Source of the DNA: a virus
Lineage: Duplodnaviria > Heunggongvirae > Uroviricota > Caudoviricetes
IMG/VR virus record: IMGVR_UViG_2531839473_000009
Direction: 5' to 3' (one strand)
DNA: 10,411 nt
The notes under the pieces were generated by a model. The model searched no databases and was not told the DNA's origin. It saw only the letters and a list, made by a program, of their open reading frames with translations. Position 1 is the stretch's first letter, and every line of letters starts with the position of its first letter. Positions 1-10,411 of the stretch are shown piece by piece. The position numbers were made by a program, and so were the translations under genes.

Positions 1-1242
1 ATGGCGAGAAAAACACCCCCATTAACCACAGTGCAGATCAAAGCAGCCAGACCAGCGCAAAAGGAGTACACCCTACAGGACGGCGGTGGGCTTTTTCTCC
101 TGGTAAAACCGTCCGGATCAAAACTCTGGCGATTTTCCTACTACCGACCATCGGACAAAAAAAGAATATTGCTGAGTTTTGGATCGCTTGAAGATGTTTC
201 CCTGGCTGATGCCAGAAAACGCCGTAGCGAGTACAGGACGTTAATCAGTGCCGGAACTGACCCGCAGGACCATGAGAAGAAAAAACGAGAGGCAGAGGCC
301 CGAAGACAAGGGAACACGTTCGAAAATGTGGCGGCGGCATGGTACCAGGTGAAAATCAGCCAGAATCTGGCCCCCAACACGATTAAAGACATCTGGCGTT
401 CGCTGGATAAATATGTATTCCCGTTCATCGGCAACACGCCAATAGATACCCTCACTGCCCGAAGGTTCGTTGAGGTGCTTACACCCATCAAGGAGCGCGG
501 CAACCTGGAAACACTCAAGCGGGTTTTACAGCGCGTTAATGAGGTAATGGATTACGCCGCCAACAGTGGGCTGATTGATGCCAATCCGGCTATGAATGTG
601 CGTAAGGCGTTCCCCTCCCCTGTAAAAAAACATATGCCAACAATCCGCCCCGAACAGTTGCCGGAGCTTATGCAGGCTTTATCCGTATCAGCAACAGAAC
701 GGCAGACCAGATTACTGATTGAATGGCAGCTACTGACTGTAACCCGTCCGGTTGAAGCATCGTCAGCACGCTGGGAAGAAATCGACATGGACGCGCAACA
801 ATGGACGATCCCCGCCGGACGCATGAAGATGCGGCGTGATCACGTTATCCCGCTTTGTAGTCAGGCTATGGCGGTACTGGAGGCCATGAAGCCAATCAGC
901 CACCACCGCGAGCACGTTTTCCCTAGCCTGAAAGACCCACGGCAGCCTATGAACAGCCAGACCGCCAACGCAGCATTGCGGCGAATGGGATTCGCTGGCG
1001 TGCTGGTGTCTCATGGATTACGCGCCATATTCAGCACAGCAGCGAACGAGGAAGGATTCGAGCCGGACGTAATCGAGGCCGCACTCGCACACGTGGACAC
1101 GAACGAGGTAAGGCGAGCATATAACCGAAGTAACTACCTGGAAAAGCGCGTGGTGCTTATGCGCTGGTGGGGGGAATTTGTAGAGGCCGCAGCAACCGGA
1201 GTGACCATAGCCAGTGGTAAAAGGGGTATCCGTGCCGTGTAA
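1..1242 (+). CDS. int: Tyrosine-type site-specific integrase, P4/CP4-57 family (413 aa, apparently complete)
   Basis: N-terminus MARKTPPLTTVQIKAARP..YTLQDGGGLFLLVKPSGSKLWRFSY matches the arm-binding domain of P4-type integrases. C-terminus HGLRAIFSTAA...ALAHVDTNEVRRAYNRSNYLEKRVVLMRWW carries the H-x-x-R box and the conserved RAY..(catalytic Tyr)..LMxWW tail. ATG at window position 1, so the attachment site and any tRNA target lie upstream, outside the window. Confidence 0.92.
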   Translation: MARKTPPLTTVQIKAARPAQKEYTLQDGGGLFLLVKPSGSKLWRFSYYRPSDKKRILLSFGSLEDVSLADARKRRSEYRTLISAGTDPQDHEKKKREAEARRQGNTFENVAAAWYQVKISQNLAPNTIKDIWRSLDKYVFPFIGNTPIDTLTARRFVEVLTPIKERGNLETLKRVLQRVNEVMDYAANSGLIDANPAMNVRKAFPSPVKKHMPTIRPEQLPELMQALSVSATERQTRLLIEWQLLTVTRPVEASSARWEEIDMDAQQWTIPAGRMKMRRDHVIPLCSQAMAVLEAMKPISHHREHVFPSLKDPRQPMNSQTANAALRRMGFAGVLVSHGLRAIFSTAANEEGFEPDVIEAALAHVDTNEVRRAYNRSNYLEKRVVLMRWWGEFVEAAATGVTIASGKRGIRAV

Positions 1243-1343
1243 CTGTACAAAAAACCAGTAAAAGCGATGCAAACCATGCTAAACCATCGTATAATCACCA
1301 TATACAGAGAGACCCGACTCTTGAAATTCAAGGAGTTATCCGA

Positions 1344-1586
1344 GTGTTTTTCAATGAAAAGGTATCCCCTGCCTATGGTGAAGGCCTTCAACTGGCCTTA
1401 ATGGCAAATCGTGAATTCTGGTCAACGTACGATCCGGAAGACAAATCAACTGCCCCCACAAAACACGAGGTAGTCAGTTTTTTGCGCTCGCGTGGCGCAT
1501 CGAAAAATCTGGCTGAAAGTATCGACAAGGTGCTGAGGCCCACCAGCCTTAAATGCGGTGGGCGACCTAAGAAGTGGAAACGGTAA
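1344..1586 (+). CDS. Hypothetical small protein (80 aa), GTG start
   Basis: Open frame with a strong Shine-Dalgarno (CAAGGAG, 1329-1335) 8 nt upstream of GTG at 1344, followed by an intrinsic terminator. Basic C-terminus (GGRPKKWKR). No family recognised. Confidence 0.5.
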   Translation: MFFNEKVSPAYGEGLQLALMANREFWSTYDPEDKSTAPTKHEVVSFLRSRGASKNLAESIDKVLRPTSLKCGGRPKKWKR

Positions 1587-1592
1587 TCACAA

Positions 1593-1621
1593 TAGCGGCC
1601 CCTTGCGGTCGCTATTTTTTT
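1593..1621 (+). terminator. Rho-independent terminator after the 80-aa gene
   Basis: Stem TAGCGGCC / GGTCGCTA (8 bp with one G-U pair), 6-nt loop CCTTGC, then T7 run (1615-1621). Confidence 0.5.
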
Positions 1622-1665
1622 GCAGAAAGAAAAGCGTAATCAATAAGATAAAAAACAGTGGGTAC

Positions 1666-1702
1666 CGTTTTAAAACGGTGGGTACTGTTTTTCCCGCCCT
1701 GC
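1666..1702. promoter_or_regulatory. Direct repeat plus perfect 16-bp palindrome upstream of alpA (candidate operator)
   Basis: GTGGGTACCGTTTT and GTGGGTACTGTTTT direct repeats flank the perfect palindrome ACCGTTTTAAAACGGT (about 1674-1689), roughly 70 bp upstream of the alpA start. Confidence 0.35.
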
Positions 1703-1756
1703 CCTGTTTTACCGTATTTATCACCGGAATACGCCGGATTAACGAGGTAAAACATA

Positions 1757-1963
1757 GTGGAAACAATCAGAAAAATTCTTACCCGTCAGGAAGTAAAAAA
1801 TATTCTGCGCATCAAGGCAGACAGTTCGCTACAGGACATGATCAACGCCGGAAAATTCCCGAAAGGCTTCAAAATCGGTCTGCGCCGTGTTGGCTGGTAT
1901 GAAGATGAAGTGCTGGCCTGGCTGAAAGAGCGCGAGGAAGAAGCGCGCGGAACGGCTGCGTAA
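1757..1963 (+). CDS. alpA: AlpA-family phage transcriptional regulator / excisionase-like DNA-binding protein (68 aa, GTG start)
   Basis: Sequence ..LTRQEVKNILRIKADSSLQDMINAGKFPKGFKIGLRRVGWYEDEVLAWLKER has the AlpA/Vis/TorI signature (G-FPK ... R-VGW-E-EV-AWL). SD GAGGT sits 7 nt upstream of GTG. Position right after int is typical. Confidence 0.85.
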   Translation: METIRKILTRQEVKNILRIKADSSLQDMINAGKFPKGFKIGLRRVGWYEDEVLAWLKEREEEARGTAA

Positions 1964-2111
1964 TGGTGTGAGGCGTAACGCGATGAACATAACAAAAAGC
2001 GCCCCGTTGCCGGAGCGCCCTTGCGAACAATTAACCTGCTGCGAAAAAAATGGATCAGTGCAGTGGAATTATATCAACCGTGTGACGAAGCGCCACAATT
2101 GCCGGATAACA

Positions 2112-2142
2112 GGCAAAACAAAGGCCACCCGCTACGGTGGCC
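2112..2142 (-). terminator. Possible terminator for the leftward small regulator gene
   Basis: Hairpin GGCCACC-CGCTAC-GGTGGCC (2123-2142). On the - strand it is followed by the T-rich run TTTGTTTTG. Lies between the convergent alpA and minus-strand gene. Confidence 0.35.
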
Positions 2143-2245
2143 CCTCGACACAAGCTACACGTTATCCCCAACGCATGAGCATAGCCAACAATGCCACATT
2201 TGCGGCTGGTGGGCAAAGCGTAACCGGAAAAAAATTCCGGTGGAG

Positions 2246-2425
2246 CTACTCCTGCTCTTTGGCCTTGCGGCGCTGGCGGCGTTTGATCTCGCCGCGCATG
2301 GCTGCACTTATAAACTGCCCTGTACTTTCGCCTTCTTCTTTCACGTTTTCCATGCCTTCAATAATTTCATGGGCAATACGTGCAGTTACAGATTGTGATT
2401 TTGCATTCTTTGGACCTGTTGCCAT
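2246..2425 (-). CDS. Small DNA-binding protein (59 aa), candidate ribbon-helix-helix repressor
   Basis: Start chosen at the internal ATG (MATGPKNAKSQSVTARIAHEIIEGMENVKEEGESTGQFISAAMRGEIKRRQRRKAKEQE) because a consensus SD (AAGGAG) lies 6 nt upstream; the longer track ORF (to 2464) lacks one. Pattern of a short beta-strand (SQSVTARI), two helices and a basic tail resembles Arc/CopG/MetJ-type proteins. Transcribed divergently from an operator-rich promoter region. Confidence 0.6.
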   Translation of the reverse strand: MATGPKNAKSQSVTARIAHEIIEGMENVKEEGESTGQFISAAMRGEIKRRQRRKAKEQE

Positions 2426-2445
2426 GTCTAACTCCTTATGTTTTT

Positions 2446-2527
2446 GGTGTAAGACAATATACACGAAAAAAAATTATTTTGAAGGGTTGACGTGTAAGAC
2501 ACTATTATTTTATATTGTGTCTTACAC
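2446..2527. promoter_or_regulatory. Divergent promoter pair with three copies of a GTGTAAGACA(C) operator motif
   Basis: Rightward promoter: TTGACG (2487-2492), 18-bp spacer, TATATT (2511-2516). Leftward promoter on the - strand: TTCAAA, 16-bp spacer, TATATT (+ coordinates 2456-2483). Operator copies: GTGTAAGACA 2447-2456, GTGTAAGACAC 2492-2502 and its perfect inverse GTGTCTTACAC 2517-2527. The copies overlap the -35 and transcription-start regions of both promoters. Confidence 0.6.
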
Positions 2528-2624
2528 CTTGTTGATACAAGGTGCAGAAACGACGAAACCCGGCAGTGCGCTAACACTAACCGGGCTTCTAACCACCAAC
2601 GATAACGAGAGTATCGAGGTAGCT

Positions 2625-3239
2625 ATGTTAAATCATACCATACACCCGCAAGGGCGGGACTCGCACAACCTGAATAAATATATCTGGCGTTTTATCGCCC
2701 TGAGCACAGCACAACCGCGCGTGATTACCATTGAGGCCACCAGCGAACAGGAAGCACGCCAGAAAAACCAGTTGATCGCCATTGCCAGCCAGGGCTATGA
2801 TTTATCCGCACCAGCAAAATCTGGTGCCGGGATTGGCGTCCTGGTATTTAACGAAGCGCACAACACGCGCCCTGCGTGTTTTTTTGTGCCGGATAGTCAC
2901 ACCTTATCAATGGTGGGCTGTATGGGGGCGGAGCAATCCGCGCCGGGTTCTTCGTTAACCGGTTACGCCAACCCTGTACAGTCCACCGCCAGCGAAATTG
3001 GCGTTTCCTGCGGTGGGTTTATTAAACCTAACGAAGAGGCTGCCAACATGGCTACTATCCCTGCCCTCGTACATTCTCAAACTGCCTTTATCTGGCGCTT
3101 TATCATCTTTGGCGCGTCAGAATCCCAAATCATCCACGTAACCGCCTGGACGGAACGCGAAGCGCGTAGTCGTTGCCCGTCCGGTTGTGTTGCTGTATTC
3201 GCCGCCCGTATTCGTCAGGAGGTGCGCCATGTGCAATAA
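2625..3239 (+). CDS. Icd-like (host cell division inhibitor-like) protein, long form with two tandem Icd-like modules (205 aa)
   Basis: First ATG downstream of the rightward promoter, in the only long open frame. N-terminal module MLNHTIHPQGRDSHNLNKYIWRFIALSTAQPRVITIEATSEQEAR carries the HPQGR...IWRF...SE-EAR pattern I associate with Icd-like small proteins of P4-like islands. No stop codon separates it from the second module. The 1968..2624 part of the track ORF is rejected. Confidence 0.35.
   Translation: MLNHTIHPQGRDSHNLNKYIWRFIALSTAQPRVITIEATSEQEARQKNQLIAIASQGYDLSAPAKSGAGIGVLVFNEAHNTRPACFFVPDSHTLSMVGCMGAEQSAPGSSLTGYANPVQSTASEIGVSCGGFIKPNEEAANMATIPALVHSQTAFIWRFIIFGASESQIIHVTAWTEREARSRCPSGCVAVFAARIRQEVRHVQ
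3048..3239 (+). CDS. Icd-like small protein (63 aa), internal in-frame start of the same frame
   Basis: ATG at 3048 preceded by GAAGAGG 8 nt upstream. Product MATIPALVHSQTAFIWRFIIFGASESQIIHVTAWTEREARSRCPSGCVAVFAARIRQEVRHVQ is the more canonical Icd-like module (FIWRF ... EREAR ... FAxR) and has the size typical of that family. Its stop overlaps the next gene start. Confidence 0.45.
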   Translation: MATIPALVHSQTAFIWRFIIFGASESQIIHVTAWTEREARSRCPSGCVAVFAARIRQEVRHVQ

Positions 3240-3459
3240 AAACACGCCGGACGCAGCAGGCGAAGCATTGAAAGTACTGATACATGCGCTTGTGGATATA
3301 AATTGCATGGTAGAGATCATGGAGAGGAAATCACAGTCGGAGTACGACAAAAGAAAATTTAAAACAATAAAAATAATTATCAAAAACTCACTGACAAAAG
3401 CTACAGACATCCTCAATGAGGACACTAAAAGAATCAGGGAGAAACTGTGTGATGCATAA
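3229..3459 (+). CDS. Hypothetical protein (76 aa), AT-rich accessory gene
   Basis: ATG at 3229 with consensus SD AGGAGG (3216-3221). Overlaps the upstream stop by 11 nt. Local GC is about 30-37% (hand count of 60-nt blocks) versus about 55% in the flanks. Predicted lysine-rich product, no family recognised. Confidence 0.5.
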   Translation: MCNKNTPDAAGEALKVLIHALVDINCMVEIMERKSQSEYDKRKFKTIKIIIKNSLTKATDILNEDTKRIREKLCDA

Positions 3460-3679
3460 AATACCCTTTAATGTTCTTATTCATTCTGAGAATGCATTAA
3501 TCCGCGCAAAGGAAATGGAGGCATTATTACTTAAGTTAATGGAAGTGCCGGAAAATGGCGATGAATCATATCCCATGATGTTTTCTGCCGTGCACACATT
3601 ATTAACGCCAGTAATTAACGAATTAAATACAGTGATGGCAATTCACGAGAATAATAAAGCGCATCACACCGGAGAATAA
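3452..3679 (+). CDS. Hypothetical protein (75 aa), AT-rich accessory gene
   Basis: ATG at 3452 (MHKIPFNVLIHSENALIRAKEMEALLLKLMEV...) with SD-like AGGGAGA about 9 nt upstream. Overlaps the previous stop by 8 nt. Same low-GC block. The track ORF start at 3416 is rejected because it has no SD. Confidence 0.5.
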   Translation: MHKIPFNVLIHSENALIRAKEMEALLLKLMEVPENGDESYPMMFSAVHTLLTPVINELNTVMAIHENNKAHHTGE

Positions 3680-3684
3680 AAACC

Positions 3685-3984
3685 ATGAAACAGAAAAATT
3701 CTGGCTTTACTGCCAGTGGCCTCGCTCGGCCTGAAATCCGCCCCGGCGATATTTTCCGGGATAACTACGGCGGCACGGTAACGATTAAAAGCGTGGCGGG
3801 ACGGTGCGTAACTTACCGCCGTGAAGGTTACGAATATGATTGCGTGATGCCTGTTTATCAGTTCCGGCGTGATTTTTCTCTGGTACAGACCGCGCCGCAT
3901 AACGTGCCCACCAGCAACGCCAGGGCACGGGCAAACATCCAGAAGCTGAAAACCATGATTAACGGATTCAGGGGTAAAAAATGA
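3685..3984 (+). CDS. Hypothetical protein (99 aa) immediately upstream of and coupled to the primase gene
   Basis: ATG at 3685 with GGAGA 9 nt upstream. Its stop overlaps the primase start (ATGA, 3981-3984). Occupies the position held by small helper-interaction genes (epsilon-like) in P4-type left operons, but no sequence similarity can be asserted. Confidence 0.6.
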   Translation: MKQKNSGFTASGLARPEIRPGDIFRDNYGGTVTIKSVAGRCVTYRREGYEYDCVMPVYQFRRDFSLVQTAPHNVPTSNARARANIQKLKTMINGFRGKK

Positions 3985-5735
3985 AACTGGCACCGAACGT
4001 AAAACAGCAGTCACGCGGCATAAAACACAAAGAAACAGAAGTCATTATTTTTGCGGGTAGTGATGCCTGGTCACACGCAAAACAATGGCAGGAACATGAC
4101 GCGCGTCTGGCCGGAGATAATGAGCCTCCTGTGTGGCTTGGGGAGCAGCAGTTATCAGAACTGGATAAGCTGCAAATTGTGCCGGAAGGCAGAAAATCCG
4201 TGCGCATATTCAGGGCCGGATATCTTGCGCCAGTAATGATAAAGGCGATTGGCCAGAAGCTGGCGGCGGCAGGCGTACAGGATGCAAATTTTTATCCTGA
4301 GGGTATGCACGGCCAAGAGGTGCAGAACTGGCGCGAATATCTGGCCCGTGAGCGACAGAATCTTTCTGATGGTCTGGTCATTGAGCTTCCGGTAAAGCAA
4401 AAGGCGCAACTTTCGCAGATGGCGGACAGTGAGCGCGCGCAGCTGCTTGCCGATCGCTTTGATGGCGTTTGCGTACATCCTGAAAGTGAAATCGTTTACG
4501 TATGGCGCGGCGGGGTATGGTGTCCGGTCAGCACAATGGAACTTAGCCGCGAAATGGTGGCGATCTATTCAGAGCACAGGGCCACTTTCAGCAAGCGCGT
4601 AATCAATAACGCCGTGGAAGCGTTAAAAGTTATTGCCGAACCAATGGGCGAGCCGTCCGGCGATTTGCTGCCGTTCGCCAATGGTGCGCTTGACCTGAAA
4701 ACGGGGGAATTTTCCCCGCACACGCCGGAGAACTGGATCACCACGCACAACGGTATTGAGTACACGCCACCAGCACCAGGGGAGAATATCCGCGACAACG
4801 CGCCAAACTTTCATAAATGGCTTGAGCACGTAGCCGGAAAAGACCCGCGCAAGATGATGCGTATATGTGCCGCGCTGTACATGATTATGGCGAACCGGTA
4901 CGACTGGCAGATGTTTATTGAGGCCACCGGAGACGGCGGGAGCGGTAAAAGTACATTCACGCACATAGCCAGCCTTCTGGCAGGGAAACAGAACACGGTG
5001 AGCGCGGAGATGACATCGCTTGATGATGCTGGTGGACGTGCGCAGGTTGTCGGGAGTCGTCTTATCGTCCTGGCTGACCAGCCGAAATATACAGGCGAAG
5101 GAACGGGCATCAAGAAAATCACGGGCGGCGACCCCGTGGAAATTAACCCGAAATATGAAAAGCGTTTTACGGCGGTAATCAGGGCGGTGGTGCTGGCTAC
5201 CAACAATAACCCGATGATATTCACCGAACGGGCCGGAGGTGTGTCACGTCGTCGCATAATTTTCCGTTTCGACAATATCGTCAGTGAGGCCGAAAAAGAC
5301 AGGGAGCTACCGGAAAAGATTGCGGCTGAAATCCCTGTCATTATCCGCCGATTGCTGGCGAACTTTACCGACCCTGAGAAGGCACGGGCTTTACTACTGG
5401 AACAGCGTGACGGTGATGAAGCACTGGCAATAAAGCAACAGACGGATCCGGTTATTGAGTTTTGCCAGTTCCTGAATTTTCTGGAGGAAGCGCGCGGCCT
5501 GATGATGGGTGGCGGTGGTGATTCAGTGAAGTACACGACCAGGAACAGCCTTTATCGCGTCTATCTGGCGTTTATGGCGTACGCAGGCAGGAGCAAACCG
5601 CTAAACGTAAATGACTTTGGCAAGGCTATGAAGCCAGCCGCGAAAGTTTACGGACATAAATATATTACGCGGAAAGTTAAGGGAGTAACGCAGACTAACG
5701 CAATAACAACAGACGAGTGCGACGCGTTTTTATAA
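3981..5735 (+). CDS. Replication initiator: primase / SF3-type helicase (P4 alpha-like / D5 family, 584 aa)
   Basis: Walker A motif ATGDGGSGKST (nt about 4922-4954) and a Walker B-like RLIVLAD a short distance downstream. Large size, position after alpA and directly upstream of an iteron cluster match the pri-rep genes of PICI/P4-like satellites. Confidence 0.88.
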   Translation: MKLAPNVKQQSRGIKHKETEVIIFAGSDAWSHAKQWQEHDARLAGDNEPPVWLGEQQLSELDKLQIVPEGRKSVRIFRAGYLAPVMIKAIGQKLAAAGVQDANFYPEGMHGQEVQNWREYLARERQNLSDGLVIELPVKQKAQLSQMADSERAQLLADRFDGVCVHPESEIVYVWRGGVWCPVSTMELSREMVAIYSEHRATFSKRVINNAVEALKVIAEPMGEPSGDLLPFANGALDLKTGEFSPHTPENWITTHNGIEYTPPAPGENIRDNAPNFHKWLEHVAGKDPRKMMRICAALYMIMANRYDWQMFIEATGDGGSGKSTFTHIASLLAGKQNTVSAEMTSLDDAGGRAQVVGSRLIVLADQPKYTGEGTGIKKITGGDPVEINPKYEKRFTAVIRAVVLATNNNPMIFTERAGGVSRRRIIFRFDNIVSEAEKDRELPEKIAAEIPVIIRRLLANFTDPEKARALLLEQRDGDEALAIKQQTDPVIEFCQFLNFLEEARGLMMGGGGDSVKYTTRNSLYRVYLAFMAYAGRSKPLNVNDFGKAMKPAAKVYGHKYITRKVKGVTQTNAITTDECDAFL

Positions 5736-5749
5736 TTTTTTGTAATTGC

Positions 5750-5975
5750 TGTCTACCCTGTCTACCTGAGTAAAGAAAAATACATTTAATTCAGTGCATT
5801 AAGTTATGTAGATAGCCTTTTTTTACTATCTACCCACTATCTACCCTCTCTACCTGATTTTACCTGAATCAGACAGGGAGGTAGACACGGGGTAGATAGT
5901 GGATAAAAGCACTCTACCCCGCTGAAAGCCGCGCCATTACTGGCATGAGGGCCACTAAGGTAGATAAGGTAGACA
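5750..5975. repeat. Iteron cluster, candidate origin of replication
   Basis: At least five direct copies of core TCTACC (5752, 5761, 5829, 5840, 5849, plus CTCTACCCC at about 5913) and four inverted copies GGTAGA (5880, 5891, 5959, 5969). Many are spaced 9-11 bp apart in a non-coding gap directly downstream of the primase/helicase gene. Confidence 0.6.
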
Positions 5976-6023
5976 AGGGGAGGCACAACTCAAAACTTTT
6001 TAAACGAGGGGGTAAAAATAAAT

Positions 6024-6302
6024 ATGCACACTTCAGGGAAATTTAATAAATCACTCAAAAAACGCAGAGACAGAACAGAACCGAAATATCGCGCGTTAGA
6101 CATGACAGAGCACGCTTTAAAGGTGGCAATCAGAACGATAGACCGCCACGCGGGGGAAGGATACGCGAAAGCACATCCCGACCTGATAAGCGCATTCATG
6201 ACCACGACGGCGGCAAATTTTGCCACGCTGACAGAGCGGGAGATTGCCGAAGCGGAACAGGTAACAACAATCAACGTTAAAACCGGAGAGGTGGAATCAT
6301 GA
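6024..6302 (+). CDS. Hypothetical protein (92 aa) upstream of and coupled to ssb
   Basis: ATG at 6024 with G-rich SD (GAGGGGG) 11 nt upstream. Stop overlaps the ssb start (ATGA). No family recognised. Confidence 0.5.
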   Translation: MHTSGKFNKSLKKRRDRTEPKYRALDMTEHALKVAIRTIDRHAGEGYAKAHPDLISAFMTTTAANFATLTEREIAEAEQVTTINVKTGEVES

Positions 6303-6721
6303 CAGCACAGATAGCCGCTTACGGGCGGCTGGTGGACGACCCGCAGGTAAAACAGACCAGCAAGGGCACACCGATGACGCTGGCGCGTATGGCGGTCCCC
6401 CTTCCGTGCAGCCAGGCAGATGACGGAACGGCGACGATGTGGTTATCCGTCCTGGCATTTGGCAGACAGGCCGAAGCACTGGAAAGGCACCGCAAGGGTG
6501 AACTCCTGAGCGTGGCGGGTAACATGCAGATCAGCCAGTGGACTGGGCAGAACGGAGAAACGCGGCAGGGCTGGCAGGTTATCGCAGACAGTGTAATCAG
6601 TGCGCGAACGGCGCGACTGGGCGGCAAAAAAGGTCAACAGGGCCAGGCTACTGACGCGCTGAACAGGGCAAAACAACAGGCGGGGAATGATGATCCGTAC
6701 GGGGATAACATACCGTTTTAA
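6299..6721 (+). CDS. ssb: Single-stranded DNA-binding protein (SSB-like, 140 aa)
   Basis: OB-fold region aligns by eye with E. coli SSB (GRLVDDPQVK versus GNLGQDPEVR; WLSVLAFGRQAEALERHRKGELLSVAGNMQISQWTGQNGETRQGW versus [43 protein letters not shown]). Gly/Gln-rich linker and acidic C-terminal tail ending DDPYGDNIPF (canonical SSB tip is DDDIPF). Confidence 0.8.
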   Translation: MTAQIAAYGRLVDDPQVKQTSKGTPMTLARMAVPLPCSQADDGTATMWLSVLAFGRQAEALERHRKGELLSVAGNMQISQWTGQNGETRQGWQVIADSVISARTARLGGKKGQQGQATDALNRAKQQAGNDDPYGDNIPF

Positions 6722-6736
6722 GCGACGAGTGACAGA

Positions 6737-6760
6737 AGCCGGAGCAATCCGGCTTTTTTA
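6737..6760 (+). terminator. Rho-independent terminator after ssb
   Basis: Perfect 7-bp stem AGCCGGA / TCCGGCT with GCAA loop, followed by T6. Part of a roughly 65-bp element repeated at 9171-9245. Confidence 0.7.
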
Positions 6761-6939
6761 CGGGTCCTCCTGGCGGGGTGGGCCTGAACACGGGGCGGGA
6801 GGCGCGGAAAAAAGCGCATTTTTGTGATTTTATCGTCATCATCATCATGAGCGTAATTTATTGTTTTTAATTGTTTTGATGCAAAAAAGATGATGGTTGT
6901 GGTTAATTTTTGTTCGACATCTTTGCAGGCAGATAAAAA

Positions 6940-6976
6940 AGCCCGATAAGGTCAGAGGTGGCTTATCGGGCTTTTG
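6940..6976. terminator. Second, bidirectional-looking intrinsic terminator
   Basis: Perfect 11-bp stem AGCCCGATAAG / CTTATCGGGCT with 11-nt loop, A6 run upstream and T4 downstream. Confidence 0.55.
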
Positions 6977-7052
6977 CATATGAGGCTTTTTGGTGCACTG
7001 ACACACATGATCGGGATCATCATTTCATAATTTGCAACACAACTCAACATCA

Positions 7053-7080
7053 TTGCATAAAATGCAATCATGATTATAAT
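7053..7080 (+). promoter_or_regulatory. Sigma70-type promoter upstream of the capsid module
   Basis: TTGCAT (7053-7058), 16-bp spacer, consensus TATAAT (7075-7080). The -35 element lies inside the palindrome TTGCAT-AAA-ATGCAA (7053-7067); further TTGCA half-sites are upstream (about 7031-7037). Confidence 0.45.
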
Positions 7081-7113
7081 CAGAACTGGATGAACATCCA
7101 GTTCTGATTTTTT
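7081..7113 (+). promoter_or_regulatory. Perfect 12-bp-arm hairpin plus T-tract directly downstream of the promoter -10 (candidate leader terminator/attenuator or operator)
   Basis: CAGAACTGGATG-AA-CATCCAGTTCTG (7081-7106) followed by A then T6 (7108-7113), about 25 nt upstream of the first capsid-module start codon. Confidence 0.45.
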
Positions 7114-7136
7114 AAGTCAAAGAGGAATTTCTTACT

Positions 7137-7343
7137 ATGGCTGAAGAGAAAAAAGGCGGTGTTTCGGTGTACATAAGCCCCGAAATCGTGGAGGTGCTCA
7201 AGCAGCGCCACAAAAAAAACTATGAGGCTGGCGTGGCGGCTGGACTGGATCCGCTGATGACGCCGGAGCCGTCGATAGGTTCACTTGTACGCTCTTATTT
7301 ACTTGCGGCGCTTGGGATGCATAAAAATTATGGGGGTGAATAA
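7137..7343 (+). CDS. Hypothetical protein (68 aa), first gene of the capsid module
   Basis: ATG at 7137 with AGAGGA upstream. Stop TAA overlaps the capsid gene ATG (TAATG at 7341-7345). No family recognised. Confidence 0.5.
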   Translation: MAEEKKGGVSVYISPEIVEVLKQRHKKNYEAGVAAGLDPLMTPEPSIGSLVRSYLLAALGMHKNYGGE

Positions 7344-8398
7344 TGGCAGGCAAAGCAACGGCACTTAACACTAACCAGCTTTTCATGTACCTGAATCGCG
7401 GGGATATTGCGGAATTTAAATTCAGTCCGCTGTTTACCACGCTGTTTTTCCCGAACGTGGCGACATTCAACACCCAAAACATCATGCTGGACACCCTGGA
7501 CATTGAAGAGGTTACGATGTCGGCGTTTTGTTCGCCTATGGTGGGTAGTCAGGTCCAGCGCGATAAAGGGTACGAAACCAGCACGATTAAACCTGGATAC
7601 ATGAAGCCGAAGCACGAAATCGATCCAACGAAAACCATCATACGTATGGCTGGAGAAGATCCGGCACAGCTTAATGACCCAACCTATCGCCGTATGCGCC
7701 TGATTACTGGCAACATGCGCCGCCAGATAAACGCGATTAAAGCGCGCGTGGAATGGCTGGCGGTGAATGCGATAACGACCGGAAAAAACATCATTGAGGG
7801 CGAAGGCATAGAACGCTATGAAATCGACTGGAAGATACCGGAAAAAAACATCATAGAGCAGGCCAAAGGCCGTAAATGGTCCGAGCAGGACAAAGAAACC
7901 CACGATCCAATCTATGATATCGAGCTTTATGCGGATCAAGCATGTTGCCCCGCCAACGTCATGATCATGGGCGCTGAGGTATGGCGAACGTTACGCAGCT
8001 TTAAAAAATTCCGCGAACTGTACGATCTTTCCCGTGGTTCAGAGTCCTCCGCAGAGCTGGCCTGTAAAAACCTGGGCGAAGTGGTGAGCTTTAAAGGATA
8101 TCTGGGCGATATTGCCCTTATCGTCTATTCCGGCAAATACACTGACAGCGACGGCACCGAAAAATATTTCCTTGAGCCTGATTTGCTGGTCCTGGGCAAC
8201 ACCAACAATAAAGGGCTGGTGGCCTATGGTGCGATTATGGATCAGGAAGCGGTCAGAACGGGCGCAACGCAAAACATGTTTTACCCGAAAAACTGGATTG
8301 AGGACGGCGATCCGGCGATTGAGTACGTGCAGACGCACAGCGCACCGCAGCCGGTTCCGGCAGATATTCGCAAATTTGTTACCGTCAAAATTGGTTAA
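7343..8398 (+). CDS. Major capsid protein, lambda gpE family (351 aa)
   Basis: Collinear similarity to recalled lambda E along the whole length: FKFSPLFTTLFF versus FKFDPLFLRLFF; PGYMKPKHEIDP versus PGYVKPKHEVNP; DPTYRRMRLI versus DPAYRRRRII; IVYSGKY...LVLGNTNNKGLVAYGAI versus VVYSGQY...MVLGNTQARGLRTYGCI; YPKNWIEDGDPAIEY versus YPKNWVTTGDPAREF; C-terminus FVTVKIG versus FVSVQLA. SD GGGGTG 6 nt upstream. Confidence 0.9.
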   Translation: MAGKATALNTNQLFMYLNRGDIAEFKFSPLFTTLFFPNVATFNTQNIMLDTLDIEEVTMSAFCSPMVGSQVQRDKGYETSTIKPGYMKPKHEIDPTKTIIRMAGEDPAQLNDPTYRRMRLITGNMRRQINAIKARVEWLAVNAITTGKNIIEGEGIERYEIDWKIPEKNIIEQAKGRKWSEQDKETHDPIYDIELYADQACCPANVMIMGAEVWRTLRSFKKFRELYDLSRGSESSAELACKNLGEVVSFKGYLGDIALIVYSGKYTDSDGTEKYFLEPDLLVLGNTNNKGLVAYGAIMDQEAVRTGATQNMFYPKNWIEDGDPAIEYVQTHSAPQPVPADIRKFVTVKIG

Positions 8399-8409
8399 CG
8401 GGGGATTCT

Positions 8410-8745
8410 ATGGACACTCCATACATTGAGTTATTTGCAGGCAGTCAGCAGGTTGCCACGACGCTGGTACATTTTGCCGCTGATGCTGGCGTTATTCAGG
8501 AATTTACCCCGCTGATGCTGGCGGACAATGGCGAATTTAAGCCGTGGGATGGTCAGGAATCTGGCAAGGCTGTTTATCTGACGGCGTATCCCGTGGACAC
8601 GTCAACGCAGAAATCAGCACAGTGTTACAAGACGGGGATATTCAATATTGCCGCCGTTAACTGGCCTGAGAGCGTCGACACCGACGCGAAAAAATGTGCC
8701 GCCTTTGCGGGTTCTGGTGTATCTGTTCAGCCGCTGGCGCGATAA
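8410..8745 (+). CDS. Head decoration protein, lambda gpD family (111 aa)
   Basis: TPLMLADNGEFKPWDG versus lambda D TPLMLDTSSRKLVAWDG; YKTGIFNIAAVNWPESVDTDAKKCAAFAGSGVSV versus [34 protein letters not shown]. Same length class as gpD; SD GGGGGA upstream. Lies downstream of the E-like gene, the opposite order to lambda. Confidence 0.85.
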   Translation: MDTPYIELFAGSQQVATTLVHFAADAGVIQEFTPLMLADNGEFKPWDGQESGKAVYLTAYPVDTSTQKSAQCYKTGIFNIAAVNWPESVDTDAKKCAAFAGSGVSVQPLAR

Positions 8746-8758
8746 GCAGGGGGGAACG

Positions 8759-9172
8759 ATGGCAACGAATGAAAGTATCATGGCGCTACCGCTGGCGAGT
8801 AAATTTAAAGCTGAAGCGCGGGCAATGGCTGACAGATGTCTATCAACCTACGAAGCTATATATCAACTTAACAAACTGGAAGAACAGGACAAGCCGCGCG
8901 CTGATGCGATTATGTCGCTTCATGAATCTGACGACTATCAGCCGCTGTTACGTGCAATGGCAAACGTGCCTTGTATTGATGTTGATACGGCTAAAAACAT
9001 CCTGAACATGACCATAGAACAGGAACGCCAGAAGGTTGCACCAGAGCTTACCGCAGCCTTTGAAAACTTTATGGACATGCACAGCCCACAAGCCGTATCA
9101 GCTGGCATGGCATACGATGGCAGAAACCCGGGCGATGACGGCGACATTGATCGCATACTGAAAACCATCTGA
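8759..9172 (+). CDS. Hypothetical protein (137 aa), last gene of the capsid module
   Basis: ATG at 8759 with G-rich SD (AGGGGGG) 6-8 nt upstream; the longer track ORF start (8648) overlaps the decoration gene and lacks an SD. Acidic C-terminus. Followed by an intrinsic terminator. No family recognised. Confidence 0.55.
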   Translation: MATNESIMALPLASKFKAEARAMADRCLSTYEAIYQLNKLEEQDKPRADAIMSLHESDDYQPLLRAMANVPCIDVDTAKNILNMTIEQERQKVAPELTAAFENFMDMHSPQAVSAGMAYDGRNPGDDGDIDRILKTI

Positions 9173-9177
9173 GACAA

Positions 9178-9200
9178 GGCCGGAGAAATCCGGCTTTTTT
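9178..9200 (+). terminator. Rho-independent terminator after the capsid module (copy of the ssb terminator element)
   Basis: Stem GGCCGGA / TCCGGC with GAAA loop, then T6. The surrounding 9171-9245 is about 75% identical by eye to 6731-6800. Confidence 0.7.
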
Positions 9201-9333
9201 GCGGGTCCTTTCCGGCATATGGACCTGTTACGGGGCGGCGACCTCGCGCGTTTTCACTATTTATGACGTTTTTCCGAGAAGGTGCCACCACCACCACTTG
9301 ATTAATATTTAACCATGCAGTTGAGGTAACATT

Positions 9334-9768
9334 ATGATTGATAAAGCTTGTTTTGTAAGCCAGCAGGAAATAGCTGAACATTTCCAGGTAAACAGAACCA
9401 CTATTCGCGCATGGACCAAACAGGGGATGCCCTATCTTAATGCGGATCGCGGAAAGTCTGGCGGTTATCACATCGGGCATACATTGCTTTGGTCTTCAGG
9501 TAAAAGCCATTTTGAGACCATCGGATATCACGTAGAAACCAGTGCGCTGGAAAAAATTATGGTTGCCAGGCTGCTTTCATCTGAGCGTGACGAGTACTCC
9601 AGTGAAGAAACAGAACATCGATTTGATGAAGGTTTGCAGATTTACGGCTATGCACCGGAAGATGTGAGCAAGGCACGAAATAAAATGGCTGGCTTTCTGG
9701 CTGGGTGGCGTCATGCAGTAAGCGTTCGCCGTGCCAGCATGGAGCAATCAGCCGATACAGAACAGTAA
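9334..9768 (+). CDS. Nu1-like small terminase subunit / winged-HTH DNA-binding protein (144 aa)
   Basis: N-terminus VSQQEIAEHFQVNRTTIRAWTKQGMPYLNADRGKSGG resembles lambda Nu1 KKQLADIFGASIRTIQNWQEQGMPVLRGGGKGNE (the TI..W...GMP.L....GK motif of its winged helix). About 35 aa shorter than Nu1 with an unrelated C-terminal half. SD GAGGT 5 nt upstream. A MerR-like regulator cannot be excluded. Confidence 0.55.
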   Translation: MIDKACFVSQQEIAEHFQVNRTTIRAWTKQGMPYLNADRGKSGGYHIGHTLLWSSGKSHFETIGYHVETSALEKIMVARLLSSERDEYSSEETEHRFDEGLQIYGYAPEDVSKARNKMAGFLAGWRHAVSVRRASMEQSADTEQ

Positions 9769-9926
9769 AGCCGATAACTTGTTAATCACTCGCAGCAATG
9801 CATGTGATTTGTGCACACTTTCGGTTAACTGGTTCGATGTCCGGTTTTAGTGTCTGTTTTTTGCGCATGTCCGGTTCATGGAAAGCATGTTTTTATATTT
9901 TTCATATGGTTAACTTACAGAGAAAC

Positions 9927-10411
9927 TGGATTTGCCCCTATATTTCCAGACATCTGTTATCACTTAACCCATTACAAGCCCGCTGCCGCAGATATTCCCG
10001 TGGCGAGCGATAACCCAGCGCACTATGCGGATGCCATTCGTTATAATGCTCGAACGCCTCTGCAAGGTTCTTTGCTGCCGTTAACCCGTCTGGTTTGGGC
10101 ATGATACTGATGTAGTCACGCTTTATCGTTTTCACGAAGCTCTCTGCTATTCCGTTACTCTCCGGACTCCGCACCGCCGTGTTCTTCGGTTCAAGTCCCA
10201 ACATCCGGGCGAACTGGCGTGTTTCATTAGCCCGGTAGCATGAACCATTATCCGTCAGCCACTCCACTGGAGACGACGGAAGATCGTTGCCGAAGCGGCG
10301 TTCCACCGCTCCCAGCATGACGTCCTGTACTGTTTCACTGTTGAAGCCGCCAGTAGTCACCGCCCAGTGCAGTGCCTCACGATCACAGCAGTCCAGCGCG
10401 AACGTGACACG
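9927..10411 (-). mobile_element. IS2 (IS3 family), right end and 3' part, truncated by the window edge
   Basis: Terminal sequence TGGATTTGCCCCTATATTTCCAGACATCTGTTATCACTTAACC matches the remembered IS2 end adjacent to the orfB stop, including the conserved TTTCCAGACA...TATCACTTAA inverted-repeat core. Element boundary placed at about 9927. Target-site duplication cannot be checked because the other end is outside the window. Confidence 0.8.
9938..10411 (-). CDS. insD: IS2 transposase OrfB (InsD), C-terminal part; 5' end outside the window
   Basis: The reverse frame is open to the window edge (..[40 protein letters not shown]...[19 protein letters not shown]...[24 protein letters not shown]). 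It matches the IS2 InsD C-terminus from memory and has the DDE-domain tail typical of IS3-family OrfB. Confidence 0.9.

Follow-up and report, generated by a model that had tools for sequence, protein, structure and literature searches.

The stretch of DNA analyzed here, the virus record IMGVR_UViG_2531839473_000009 of IMG/VR (10,411 nt in its entirety, hereafter the window), begins at the start codon of an integrase gene and carries an island at positions 1–9926, after which a partial IS2 element is found. The features of the window are collected in Table 1. Taken together, they make it very probable that the window represents ~10 kb of an ~11-kb classical Gram-negative phage-inducible chromosomal island (GN-PICI) of the EcCICFT073 family, which is interrupted by IS2 near its right end and which uses the mechanism described for the prototype. 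The element, its attachment (att) site, the capsid and decoration genes, the Rpp/cos packaging hijack, and the P4-type immunity RNAs have all been published already. What the present analysis adds concerns the capsid module, namely its purifying selection, its satellite-specific clade, a homologue of the Nu3 scaffold, and its organization as a discrete, repeat-bracketed unit.

Table 1. Features of the window, with positions in nt and the matches or motifs on which each assignment is based (ORF, open reading frame; aa, amino acids)
Feature	Position	Strand	Matches and motifs
P4-type tyrosine integrase, tRNA-Pro (yejM–yejO) att site	1–1242	+	Phage_integrase 9.9e-28, Arm-DNA-bind_3 4.8e-23, Phage_int_M
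80-aa conserved ORF	1344–1586	+	no family match; 73–99% identity in sister islands
AlpA, activator of island genes	1757–1963	+	Pfam Phage_AlpA 4.5e-08
Ash/Eta-like ORF, P4-type immunity ("Bro") zone	1968–3239	+	Phage_ASH 8.3e-16, residues 278–370
YlcI/YnfO-family small ORF	2246–2464	-	phrog_949 9e-19; same name in sister-island annotation
isrK-type RNA, relative of P4 seqA (target site)	2808–2884	+	Rfam RF01394, 80 bits (gathering 50), E=2.7e-16
C4/CI-type immunity antisense RNA	2906–2993	+	Rfam RF01695, 75.3 bits (gathering 45), E=1.1e-13
Two small overlapping ORFs	3187–3459 and 3416–3679	+	phrog_5146 2.3e-09, phrog_2196 1.3e-08
DUF4222 protein, upstream partner of replication gene	3685–3984	+	Pfam DUF4222 1.2e-24
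Pri-Rep primase/helicase	3981–5735	+	D5_N, DUF5906, Pox_D5, TIGR01613 P4-family primase
Replication origin, iterons in inverted blocks	5743–5980		repeat families D1/D2, I1–I3
92-aa conserved ORF	6024–6302	+	phrog_1231 1.7e-51
SSB, single-stranded DNA-binding protein	6299–6721	+	Pfam SSB 4.9e-15
Terminator hairpin, cosQ-like motif, and degenerate cosN-like remnant	6738–6806	+	left copy of bracketing direct repeat
Control region upstream of capsid module	7018–7116	+	TTGCA palindromes, TATAAT, perfect 15-bp inverted repeat, T-run; repeats D5, I7
68-aa ORF, apparently satellite-specific	7137–7343	+	phrog_3255 8.5e-46; end overlaps capsid gene start
gpE-family major capsid protein (c1499 homologue)	7343–8398	+	Pfam Phage_cap_E 1.6e-50
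gpD-family head decoration protein (c1500 homologue)	8410–8745	+	Pfam HDPD 2.1e-18
Nu3-like protein, predicted scaffold C-terminal domain, 136 aa (c1501 homologue)	8762–9172	+	phrog_1999 7e-62
Terminator-like hairpin closing capsid module	9179–9200	+	GCCGGA-GAAA-TCCGGC then TTTTTT; part of right repeat copy
cos site: cosQ (GGGTCCT), exact lambda cosN (9233–9244), divergent cosB	9203–9275	+	exact GGGCGGCGACCT
Rpp (RppA-type), packaging-redirecting protein	9334–9768	+	PDB 6HLK RppC, E=6.5e-31
IS2, partial, not satellite	9927–10411	-	terminal repeat TGGATTTGCCCC from 9927; ORF 9938–10360, transposase fragment

An earlier note on this DNA, made from the letters alone, had described a phage satellite with an int/alpA/pri-ori/ssb backbone and had put the start of IS2 just after 9926, and this description is borne out. 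The open reading frame (ORF) map and the profile searches find all the genes that it listed (int, alpA, the primase/helicase gene with its iterons, ssb, and the gpE-, gpD-, and helix-turn-helix-type genes) in the places given for them, and the terminal repeat of IS2 starts at 9927. The int, alpA, and pri-rep genes lie co-directionally on the plus strand at the left of the island, as is typical of classical GN-PICIs (~8–12 kb), and an iteron origin follows directly 3′ of the replication gene, which is a defining feature of PICIs (PMC6092414). The motif YTRTCTACC occurs there in seven exact copies (5749–5976, four on the plus strand and then three on the minus strand), compared to 0.13 expected by chance. 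A specific att site and chromosomal genes as bounds are provided by the homologous islands and by the published att site, and the sequence contains a helper-type cos site together with a gene for Rpp packaging hijack. Genes for lysis, tail, portal, and large terminase are absent from the ORFs and family scans of the window and from the annotations of the sister islands. Helper induction, replication, and high-frequency transfer have been demonstrated by experiment for EcCICFT073 and a few relatives only (PMC6092414).

The integrase, alpA, primase, and CI RNA of a P4-type backbone are also present, but this set is common to P4 and GN-PICIs and does not discriminate between them. The likeness to P4 comprises the P4-type integrase, AlpA, the P4-family primase (TIGR01613), the Ash/Eta-like gene with its C4/CI and isrK/seqA RNAs, and packaging by cos, the difference being a cos of the lambda type and lambdoid helpers in the case of the window island. 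The heads of P4 are small (T=4) and are formed by means of the external scaffold Sid. The lack of Sid, Psu, and Delta reported in the earlier note is confirmed among the ORFs scanned against Pfam or PHROGs, which matched other families or none, and the P2/P4 cohesive-end sequence has no match in the window at up to three mismatches.

According to a megablast search of 5,426 complete E. coli genomes with the window, the homologous islands lie next to tRNA-Pro, between yejM and yejO. The att core falls outside the window, and a tRNA search of the window returned no tRNA gene. The integrase is 96–100% identical to those of the Nissle/ATCC 25922 and MFDS1022581 islands beside tRNA-Pro, and strain MFDS1022581 is also the closest relative among the complete genomes, with 98% nucleotide identity across 1–9279. 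The intact island of Nissle 1917 and ATCC 25922 extends from the integrase to one small ORF past the packaging gene and then runs directly into yejO, and its annotation contains no portal, protease, or large terminase, in line with the absence of these genes noted earlier and seen in the scans of the window. The complete islands of Nissle 1917, MFDS1022581, and CFT073 all end with the last small ORF, followed by the chromosomal yejO or phoQ. The sister islands, which are 11.3–11.4 kb long, have either tRNA-Pro and yejO or roxA and phoQ as their chromosomal neighbors. One of them has been published as EcCIATCC25922 (CP009072.1, 106749–118031, 11.3 kb, att site yejM–luxR), and EcCIED1a.1 and others share its att site (Fillol-Salom et al. 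2018, supplementary Table S1, PMC6092414). The megablast match of the window in CP009072.1 starts at 106836, i.e., inside this published island.

As prototype for the comparison we used EcCICFT073 (NC_004431.1, 1377749–1389210). The window island has the same gene order and content as this and other classical Rpp-type GN-PICIs of ~11 kb (Fillol-Salom 2018, PMC6092414; 2019, PMC6739421), including the lambda-type cosN upstream of rpp and the iteron origin directly 3′ of pri. The identities to the EcCICFT073 proteins are 98% for Pri, 96% for the capsid protein (c1499), 97% for the decoration protein (c1500), 92% for the 136-aa ORF (c1501, 137 aa in CFT073), and 95% over the full length for the 144-aa helix-turn-helix protein. 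The two islands differ in the integrase/alpA arm, which in the window is of the yejM-site type with an integrase only 25% identical to that of CFT073, in perC, which is present in CFT073 and absent here, and in the IS2 element of the window. EcCIATCC25922, on the other hand, has the same att site and integrase as the window island, but where the latter has rpp, the Nissle and ATCC 25922 islands have a gene of the Nu1 family (180 aa).

The capsid-forming PICIs (cf-PICIs), such as EcCIEDL933 (Alqurainy et al. 2023, 10.1101/2022.09.08.507074), have a related int/alpA/rep backbone and also encode a capsid protein. However, they additionally encode a portal, a protease, head-tail connectors, an HNH protein, and the small and large terminases (TerS and TerL), and they form their own small capsids and use only the tails of the helper (10.1101/2022.09.08.507074). 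Genes for portal, protease, connector, HNH, and TerL are absent both from the window and from the complete islands homologous to it. The question of the earlier note, whether the island corresponds to the described capsid-forming family, is therefore answered in the negative: it is an older, classical Rpp-type GN-PICI.

Genes, borders, and ancestry of the capsid module

The capsid, decoration, and Nu3-like genes constitute a separate, terminator-bounded "late zone" cassette. The capsid protein matches Phage_cap_E with 172.5 bits (cut-off 22.9) over profile positions 16–328 of 329 and is 43% identical to lambda gpE over 328 aa. The decoration protein matches HDPD with 67 bits (cut-off 29.1) and is 38% identical to lambda gpD over 76 aa. 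Both are full-length members of their families, above the Pfam thresholds.

The third gene of the cassette corrects the view of the earlier note that no scaffold is encoded. Its 136-aa product is a predicted relative of the lambda scaffold Nu3, because the two share the PHROG profile phrog_1999, which is matched by the C-terminal 84 residues of Nu3 (117–200) at E=2.7e-26. A 195-aa Nu3-like protein (P0042) bridges the family of the 136-aa ORF and lambda Nu3. Direct comparison by BLASTP gives only E=0.022 to lambda Nu3 and no match to lambda FI, and the ORF also matches the C-terminal end of the phrog_53 protease profile (2.8e-08). An exhaustive HMMER search with the 136-aa ORF yielded only eight representatives, and tblastn of the same ORF found no match in 50,697 phage records, as was also the case for the 68-aa ORF that precedes the capsid gene. 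The AlphaFold single-sequence model has a mean predicted local distance difference test score (pLDDT) of 46.9, which makes it unreliable, and it suggests only an all-helical protein. The RefSeq label of the ORF, "phage head-tail connector protein", has no NCBIfam model behind it, and we regard it as unsupported.

The module is flanked by a direct repeat of 31 nt, the left copy of which is 94% identical to 9179–9209, the two copies lying 2,441 nt apart. On the left side, the alignment extends through ACGGGGCGG, and next to the repeat comes ACGGGGCGGGAGGCGCGG, a degenerate stretch resembling cosN. This repeat of a terminator and a cosQ motif suggests that the capsid block is a cassette that arose at the cos region by insertion or duplication.

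The control region upstream of the module contains two TTGCA-type palindromes and a terminator-like hairpin at 7078–7109 with CTGG-N8-CCAG. It is kept in the E. coli islands and in one Salmonella island whose capsid protein is only 68% identical, with differences limited to a small number of substitutions in the outer part of the arms of the inverted repeat. The hairpin could be an operator, a weak box similar to that of LexA, or a terminator that an antiterminator of the helper allows to be read through. In a manual comparison with the LexA consensus, the palindrome at 7086–7101 keeps the CTG-N10-CAG spacing but matches at only 13 of 20 positions.

The genes of the module are under purifying selection. 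The pairwise ratio of nonsynonymous to synonymous substitution rates (dN/dS) of the capsid gene is 0.09–0.18, with dS up to 0.32, and the comparisons that involve the window give 0.15–0.18 for the Nu3-like gene, compared to 0.07–0.10 for pri. The possibility, raised earlier, that the E- and D-like genes are pseudogenized remnants is rejected by the ratio for the capsid gene. The module is present at full length in 590 of the 5,426 complete E. coli genomes (~11%).

The collection of 50,697 phage records contains no phage protein more than 46% identical to the capsid protein of the window. Homologues at 55–70% identity are found in Salmonella, Serratia, and other E. coli. Without exception, they belong to islands of the order int-alpA-rep-capsid-decoration, in which the decoration gene is linked to the capsid gene, and this also holds for islands with a different replication module. 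These loci were located by a protein homology search followed by inspection of the encoding contigs; a contig scan with the capsid protein gave no confirmed locus. In a small neighbor-joining tree of nine satellite and five phage sequences, calculated without support values, the capsid proteins of the PICIs group in a separate clade, with a lowest identity of 52% within the clade and a highest identity of 48% to a phage protein. The earlier note had suggested such a phylogeny to see whether the satellite copies group together, and in this sample they do. The divergence of the decoration protein parallels that of the capsid protein.

A related island (locus L010, 2511–2786 and 13309–14073) has integrated into the capsid gene (gpE family) of a lambda-like prophage and carries its own capsid-decoration pair. 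Such helper-embedded PICIs have been described (PMC10111431). The helper-embedded PICIs (11capE; Williams lab 2023, PMC10111431) have the same four-zone organization as the window island, and the capsid-decoration pair of L010 belongs to the same satellite clade (55% identity). They differ in that they integrate into late genes of the helper, such as E, while the window island is located at the chromosomal tRNA-Pro.

Two further observations were made on the composition of the late zone in other islands. Among the capsid-decoration islands, the more distant ones have, in third place of the module, a gene for a 114–117-aa AlpA-family protein instead of the Nu3-like ORF (L009, 11402–11746; L011, 11403–11756). 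EcCI11368.1 (L017, 7865–9439) and EcCI11128 (L018, 8684–10258), which have the same integrase type and att site and a RepA-type helicase instead of Pri, have an entirely different late zone, with terS and a 307-aa "phage major capsid protein" but without a decoration gene. A capsid homologue of some family seems to recur in these satellites.

Packaging end and proposed mechanism

The protein encoded downstream of cos had been called a Nu1-like DNA-binding protein, but it is identified here as Rpp, because it matches RppC (PDB 6HLK) and shares 95% identity, over its full 144 aa, with the protein located at c1503 in EcCICFT073, i.e., RppA. The matches to the N-terminal domains of lambda-type Nu1 proteins are far weaker (E about 0.1). 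RppA has 144 residues, is encoded by c1503, and retargets the small terminase of the helper to the cos site of the island (PMC6739421). At the position of rpp, many sister islands have a gene for a 180–185-aa small terminase of the Phage_Nu1 family (L001, 17610–18152; L006, 11678–12235; L009, 11948–12490). The packaging cassette that follows cos appears to be exchangeable, with either Rpp or a full-length homologue of Nu1 in this place.

The cos site is located just upstream of rpp, with cosQ 24 nt upstream of cosN. Compared with lambda and with the CFT073 helper phage 4, the lambda-like sequence persists for ~35 nt past cosN and then diverges at the expected cosB. The position of cosN in the window is that of the plus-strand cosN upstream of rppA in EcCICFT073, for which cos sites with the same layout, cosN and cosQ being kept and cosB divergent, have been published (PMC6092414).

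IS2 is inserted 159 bp after rpp, between rpp and the last ORF of the island, without breaking any ORF. In both EcCICFT073 and Nissle, a second, inverted, exact cosN is found downstream of the packaging gene. Because the homology to CFT073 ends at about 9930, the second cosN of the window island is expected ~42 bp, and the last small ORF ~118 bp, beyond the insertion point, as judged from EcCICFT073. According to the same alignment, only ~0.95 kb of the island is missing from the window, which is too little for head or terminase genes. IS2 adds about 1.3 kb to the island and separates the two cos sites; its location between rpp with the first cos and the position of the second may have an effect on cos-to-cos packaging.

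On the basis of the prototype, the following mechanism can be proposed. The island would be integrated beside tRNA-Pro by its own P4-type integrase. A lambdoid helper would activate it, with AlpA switching on the island genes, and Pri-Rep would replicate it from the iteron origin. Rpp would then bind the small terminase of the helper (gpNu1-type), and the resulting Rpp–TerS complex would ignore the phage cos and recognize the island cosB beside the lambda-type cosQ and cosN. The helper terminase would finally package concatemers of the island into full-size heads made of helper proteins and fitted with helper tails. For the published Rpp–TerS heterocomplex, the phage cos is no longer recognized and the PICI cos is recognized instead, such that the phage is blocked and packaging of the island is promoted (PMC6739421). 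The specificity of packaging comes from Rpp and cos (PMC6739421), and Rpp had gone unrecognized in the earlier note.

All DNA packaged by EcCICFT073 is phage-sized, with no small-sized DNA (PMC6092414), which points to concatemers in full-size helper capsids. Four units of 11.3 kb amount to ~45 kb, near the capacity of the phage capsid of ~45 kb (PMC6092414); three units per capsid have been suggested in the cf-PICI paper (10.1101/2022.09.08.507074).

Some points weigh against the assignment of this mechanism to the window island. The mechanism is carried over from the prototype by the 92–98% protein identity and would apply to this allele by analogy. The allele, taken as the whole window, occurs in none of the 5,426 complete E. 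coli genomes, and the island is a mosaic, its left arm being of the MFDS1022581 type and its rpp end of the CFT073 type. The copy with IS2 may be poorer at transfer, and in MFDS1022581 (L002) the capsid gene is annotated as frameshifted (15028–16081) and only a fragment of rpp is left (17094–17303). The late zone hence decays in some strains, which tolerate its loss. The knockouts in the literature were made with no more than three helpers (CFT073 phage 4, lambda, and phi80; PMC6092414), and as to the capsid module itself, capsid assembly by the PICI is putative and its role would have to be deduced from the genes.

Possible role of the capsid module

A major capsid gene is present in 21 of 29 reference GN-PICIs (PMC10111431). 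In EcCICFT073, deletion of c1499 or c1500 leaves both lambda interference and transfer unchanged, islands with c1499::cat transfer at 10^5–10^6 per ml, and the standard tetA marker is located inside c1501, the Nu3-like gene, with the c1501::tetA islands still being transferred and the transfer of the marked islands reaching 10^6 per ml (PMC6092414). From these data, the module would be dispensable for transfer and lambda interference in the laboratory. The puzzle that remains is narrow and acknowledged: a capsid cassette under selection for which the original authors found no phenotype.

Most likely, although we say so with modest confidence, the cassette makes heads of the normal helper size, or co-assembles into them, on the portal of the helper. 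Such heads would be redundant when the head genes of the helper work and useful when these are limiting, interrupted, or mismatched. We favor full-size, redundant heads because they fit a selected trio of capsid, decoration, and scaffold genes, the lack of a knockout phenotype, and the lack of small DNA. They also fit the helper-embedded relative L010, in which E of the helper is interrupted and the island carries its own copy (cf. PMC10111431). A broader statement, that the cassette is a working "shell kit" providing satellite heads on the helper portal, either full-size or, with other natural helpers, differently sized, is tentative and, in our estimation, rather improbable. If it were true, it would place the Rpp-type PICIs midway between pure hijackers and cf-PICIs, and it would explain how an old satellite clade of gpE and gpD is kept under purifying selection without a laboratory phenotype. 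The function of the module would refine the view of how labor is divided between satellite and helper, and it could matter for engineered PICI delivery vehicles.

We have also considered that the module is a device for interference, the capsid, scaffold, or decoration homologues poisoning head formation, or causing mis-assembly, in lambdoid competitors other than the helpers. Interference with capsid assembly is common among satellites, and SaPIbov5 provides a close parallel, being a cos-packaged satellite whose Ccm is a homologue of the helper major capsid protein. Ccm, however, shifts the assembly of the helper to small heads and blocks the phage, whereas the EcCICFT073 homologue did neither, and the window island has decoration and scaffold homologues in addition. 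An interference role would account for a module that is selected although no role in transfer has been found, and the other capsid-family gene beside terS in islands at the same att site suggests a recurrent usefulness. Against this, lambda interference persisted after deletion of c1499 or c1500 (PMC6092414), and when the EcCICFT073 genes past the origin were cloned singly, only c1503 (rpp) blocked lambda and phi80 (PMC6739421). A poison would, in addition, not need a decoration protein that co-evolves with it. We therefore consider such a device unlikely.

The reading closest to that of the earlier note is that the satellite's own coat, decoration, and scaffold proteins build a different, probably smaller, shell on the helper portal, in a manner unlike Sid, CpmAB, and Ccm. 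The part of this claim that stands is that the satellite supplies intact coat and decoration genes. The trio with the Nu3-like gene is under purifying selection, the capsid clade is satellite-specific, its identity to the phage proteins in the comparison not exceeding 48%, and the capsid and decoration proteins have diverged in parallel. Lambda gpD binds only assembled, expanded shells, and by analogy a gpD-type decoration protein would act on assembled shells. The restriction of the experiments to three helpers also leaves room for such a shell with others. The part that does not stand is the size. EcCICFT073, whose capsid protein is 96% identical, packages phage-sized DNA only, its c1499 and c1500 deletions have no effect on transfer or interference, and the c1499::cat (10^5–10^6 per ml) and c1501::tetA islands transfer (PMC6092414). 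The EcCICFT073 family is likewise packaged in large capsids according to the cf-PICI paper (10.1101/2022.09.08.507074). A differently sized shell is accordingly very unlikely.

That the block is a passive remnant of helper late genes, captured by recombination and without present function, would agree with the missing knockout phenotype (PMC6092414), with the proposal that the late genes of PICIs were captured from helpers (PMC10111431), with the cassette-like bracketing by the terminator-cosQ repeat, and with the frameshift in MFDS1022581. A remnant is, however, difficult to reconcile with a capsid dN/dS of 0.09–0.18 over dS of up to 0.32, with a module that is full length in 590 genomes, and with a capsid-decoration pair that is kept in three genera at 55–70% capsid identity beside differing replication modules. 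The identity of at most 46% to any phage in the collection also speaks against a recent capture, and we hold this explanation to be highly improbable. Finally, the possibility that 7137–9768 is an ordinary lambdoid prophage abutting an unrelated integrase island, which the earlier note had named and for which nothing more than the lambda-like family assignments can be cited, is rejected as next to impossible by the boundaries of the complete Nissle 1917, MFDS1022581, and CFT073 islands, which run straight into yejO or phoQ, the order capsid-decoration-Nu3-like-cos-rpp also being different from the phage order (lambda, Gifsy-1).

Left arm and replication region

AlpA is the activator in EcCICFT073 (PMC6092414). 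The Ash/Eta-like ORF starts 5 nt past alpA (cf. P4 eta, PMC10111431), although its real start may be located farther downstream, and it also matches PHROG families of transcriptional regulators. The isrK and C4/CI RNAs lie inside this ORF, which is the arrangement of P4 immunity. The occurrence of C4/CI and of a P4-type immunity arrangement in GN-PICIs has already been reported (PMC10111431). Rfam matches to symR and mir-135 were under the thresholds and were dismissed. A PADLOC run on the small ORFs found no defense genes, the sole match being a weak one, through the helix-turn-helix only, of Rpp to mad1.

In the related islands of E. coli and of Salmonella, a DUF4222 gene immediately precedes the replication gene, an arrangement that the Serratia island does not have. 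Inside the primase gene, positions 5123–5134 match lambda cosN at 11 of 12 positions (GGGCGGCGACCC), and the stretch is conserved in the same place in the islands of CFT073 and Nissle. It is probably a coincidence of the coding sequence that is carried along with the primase gene.

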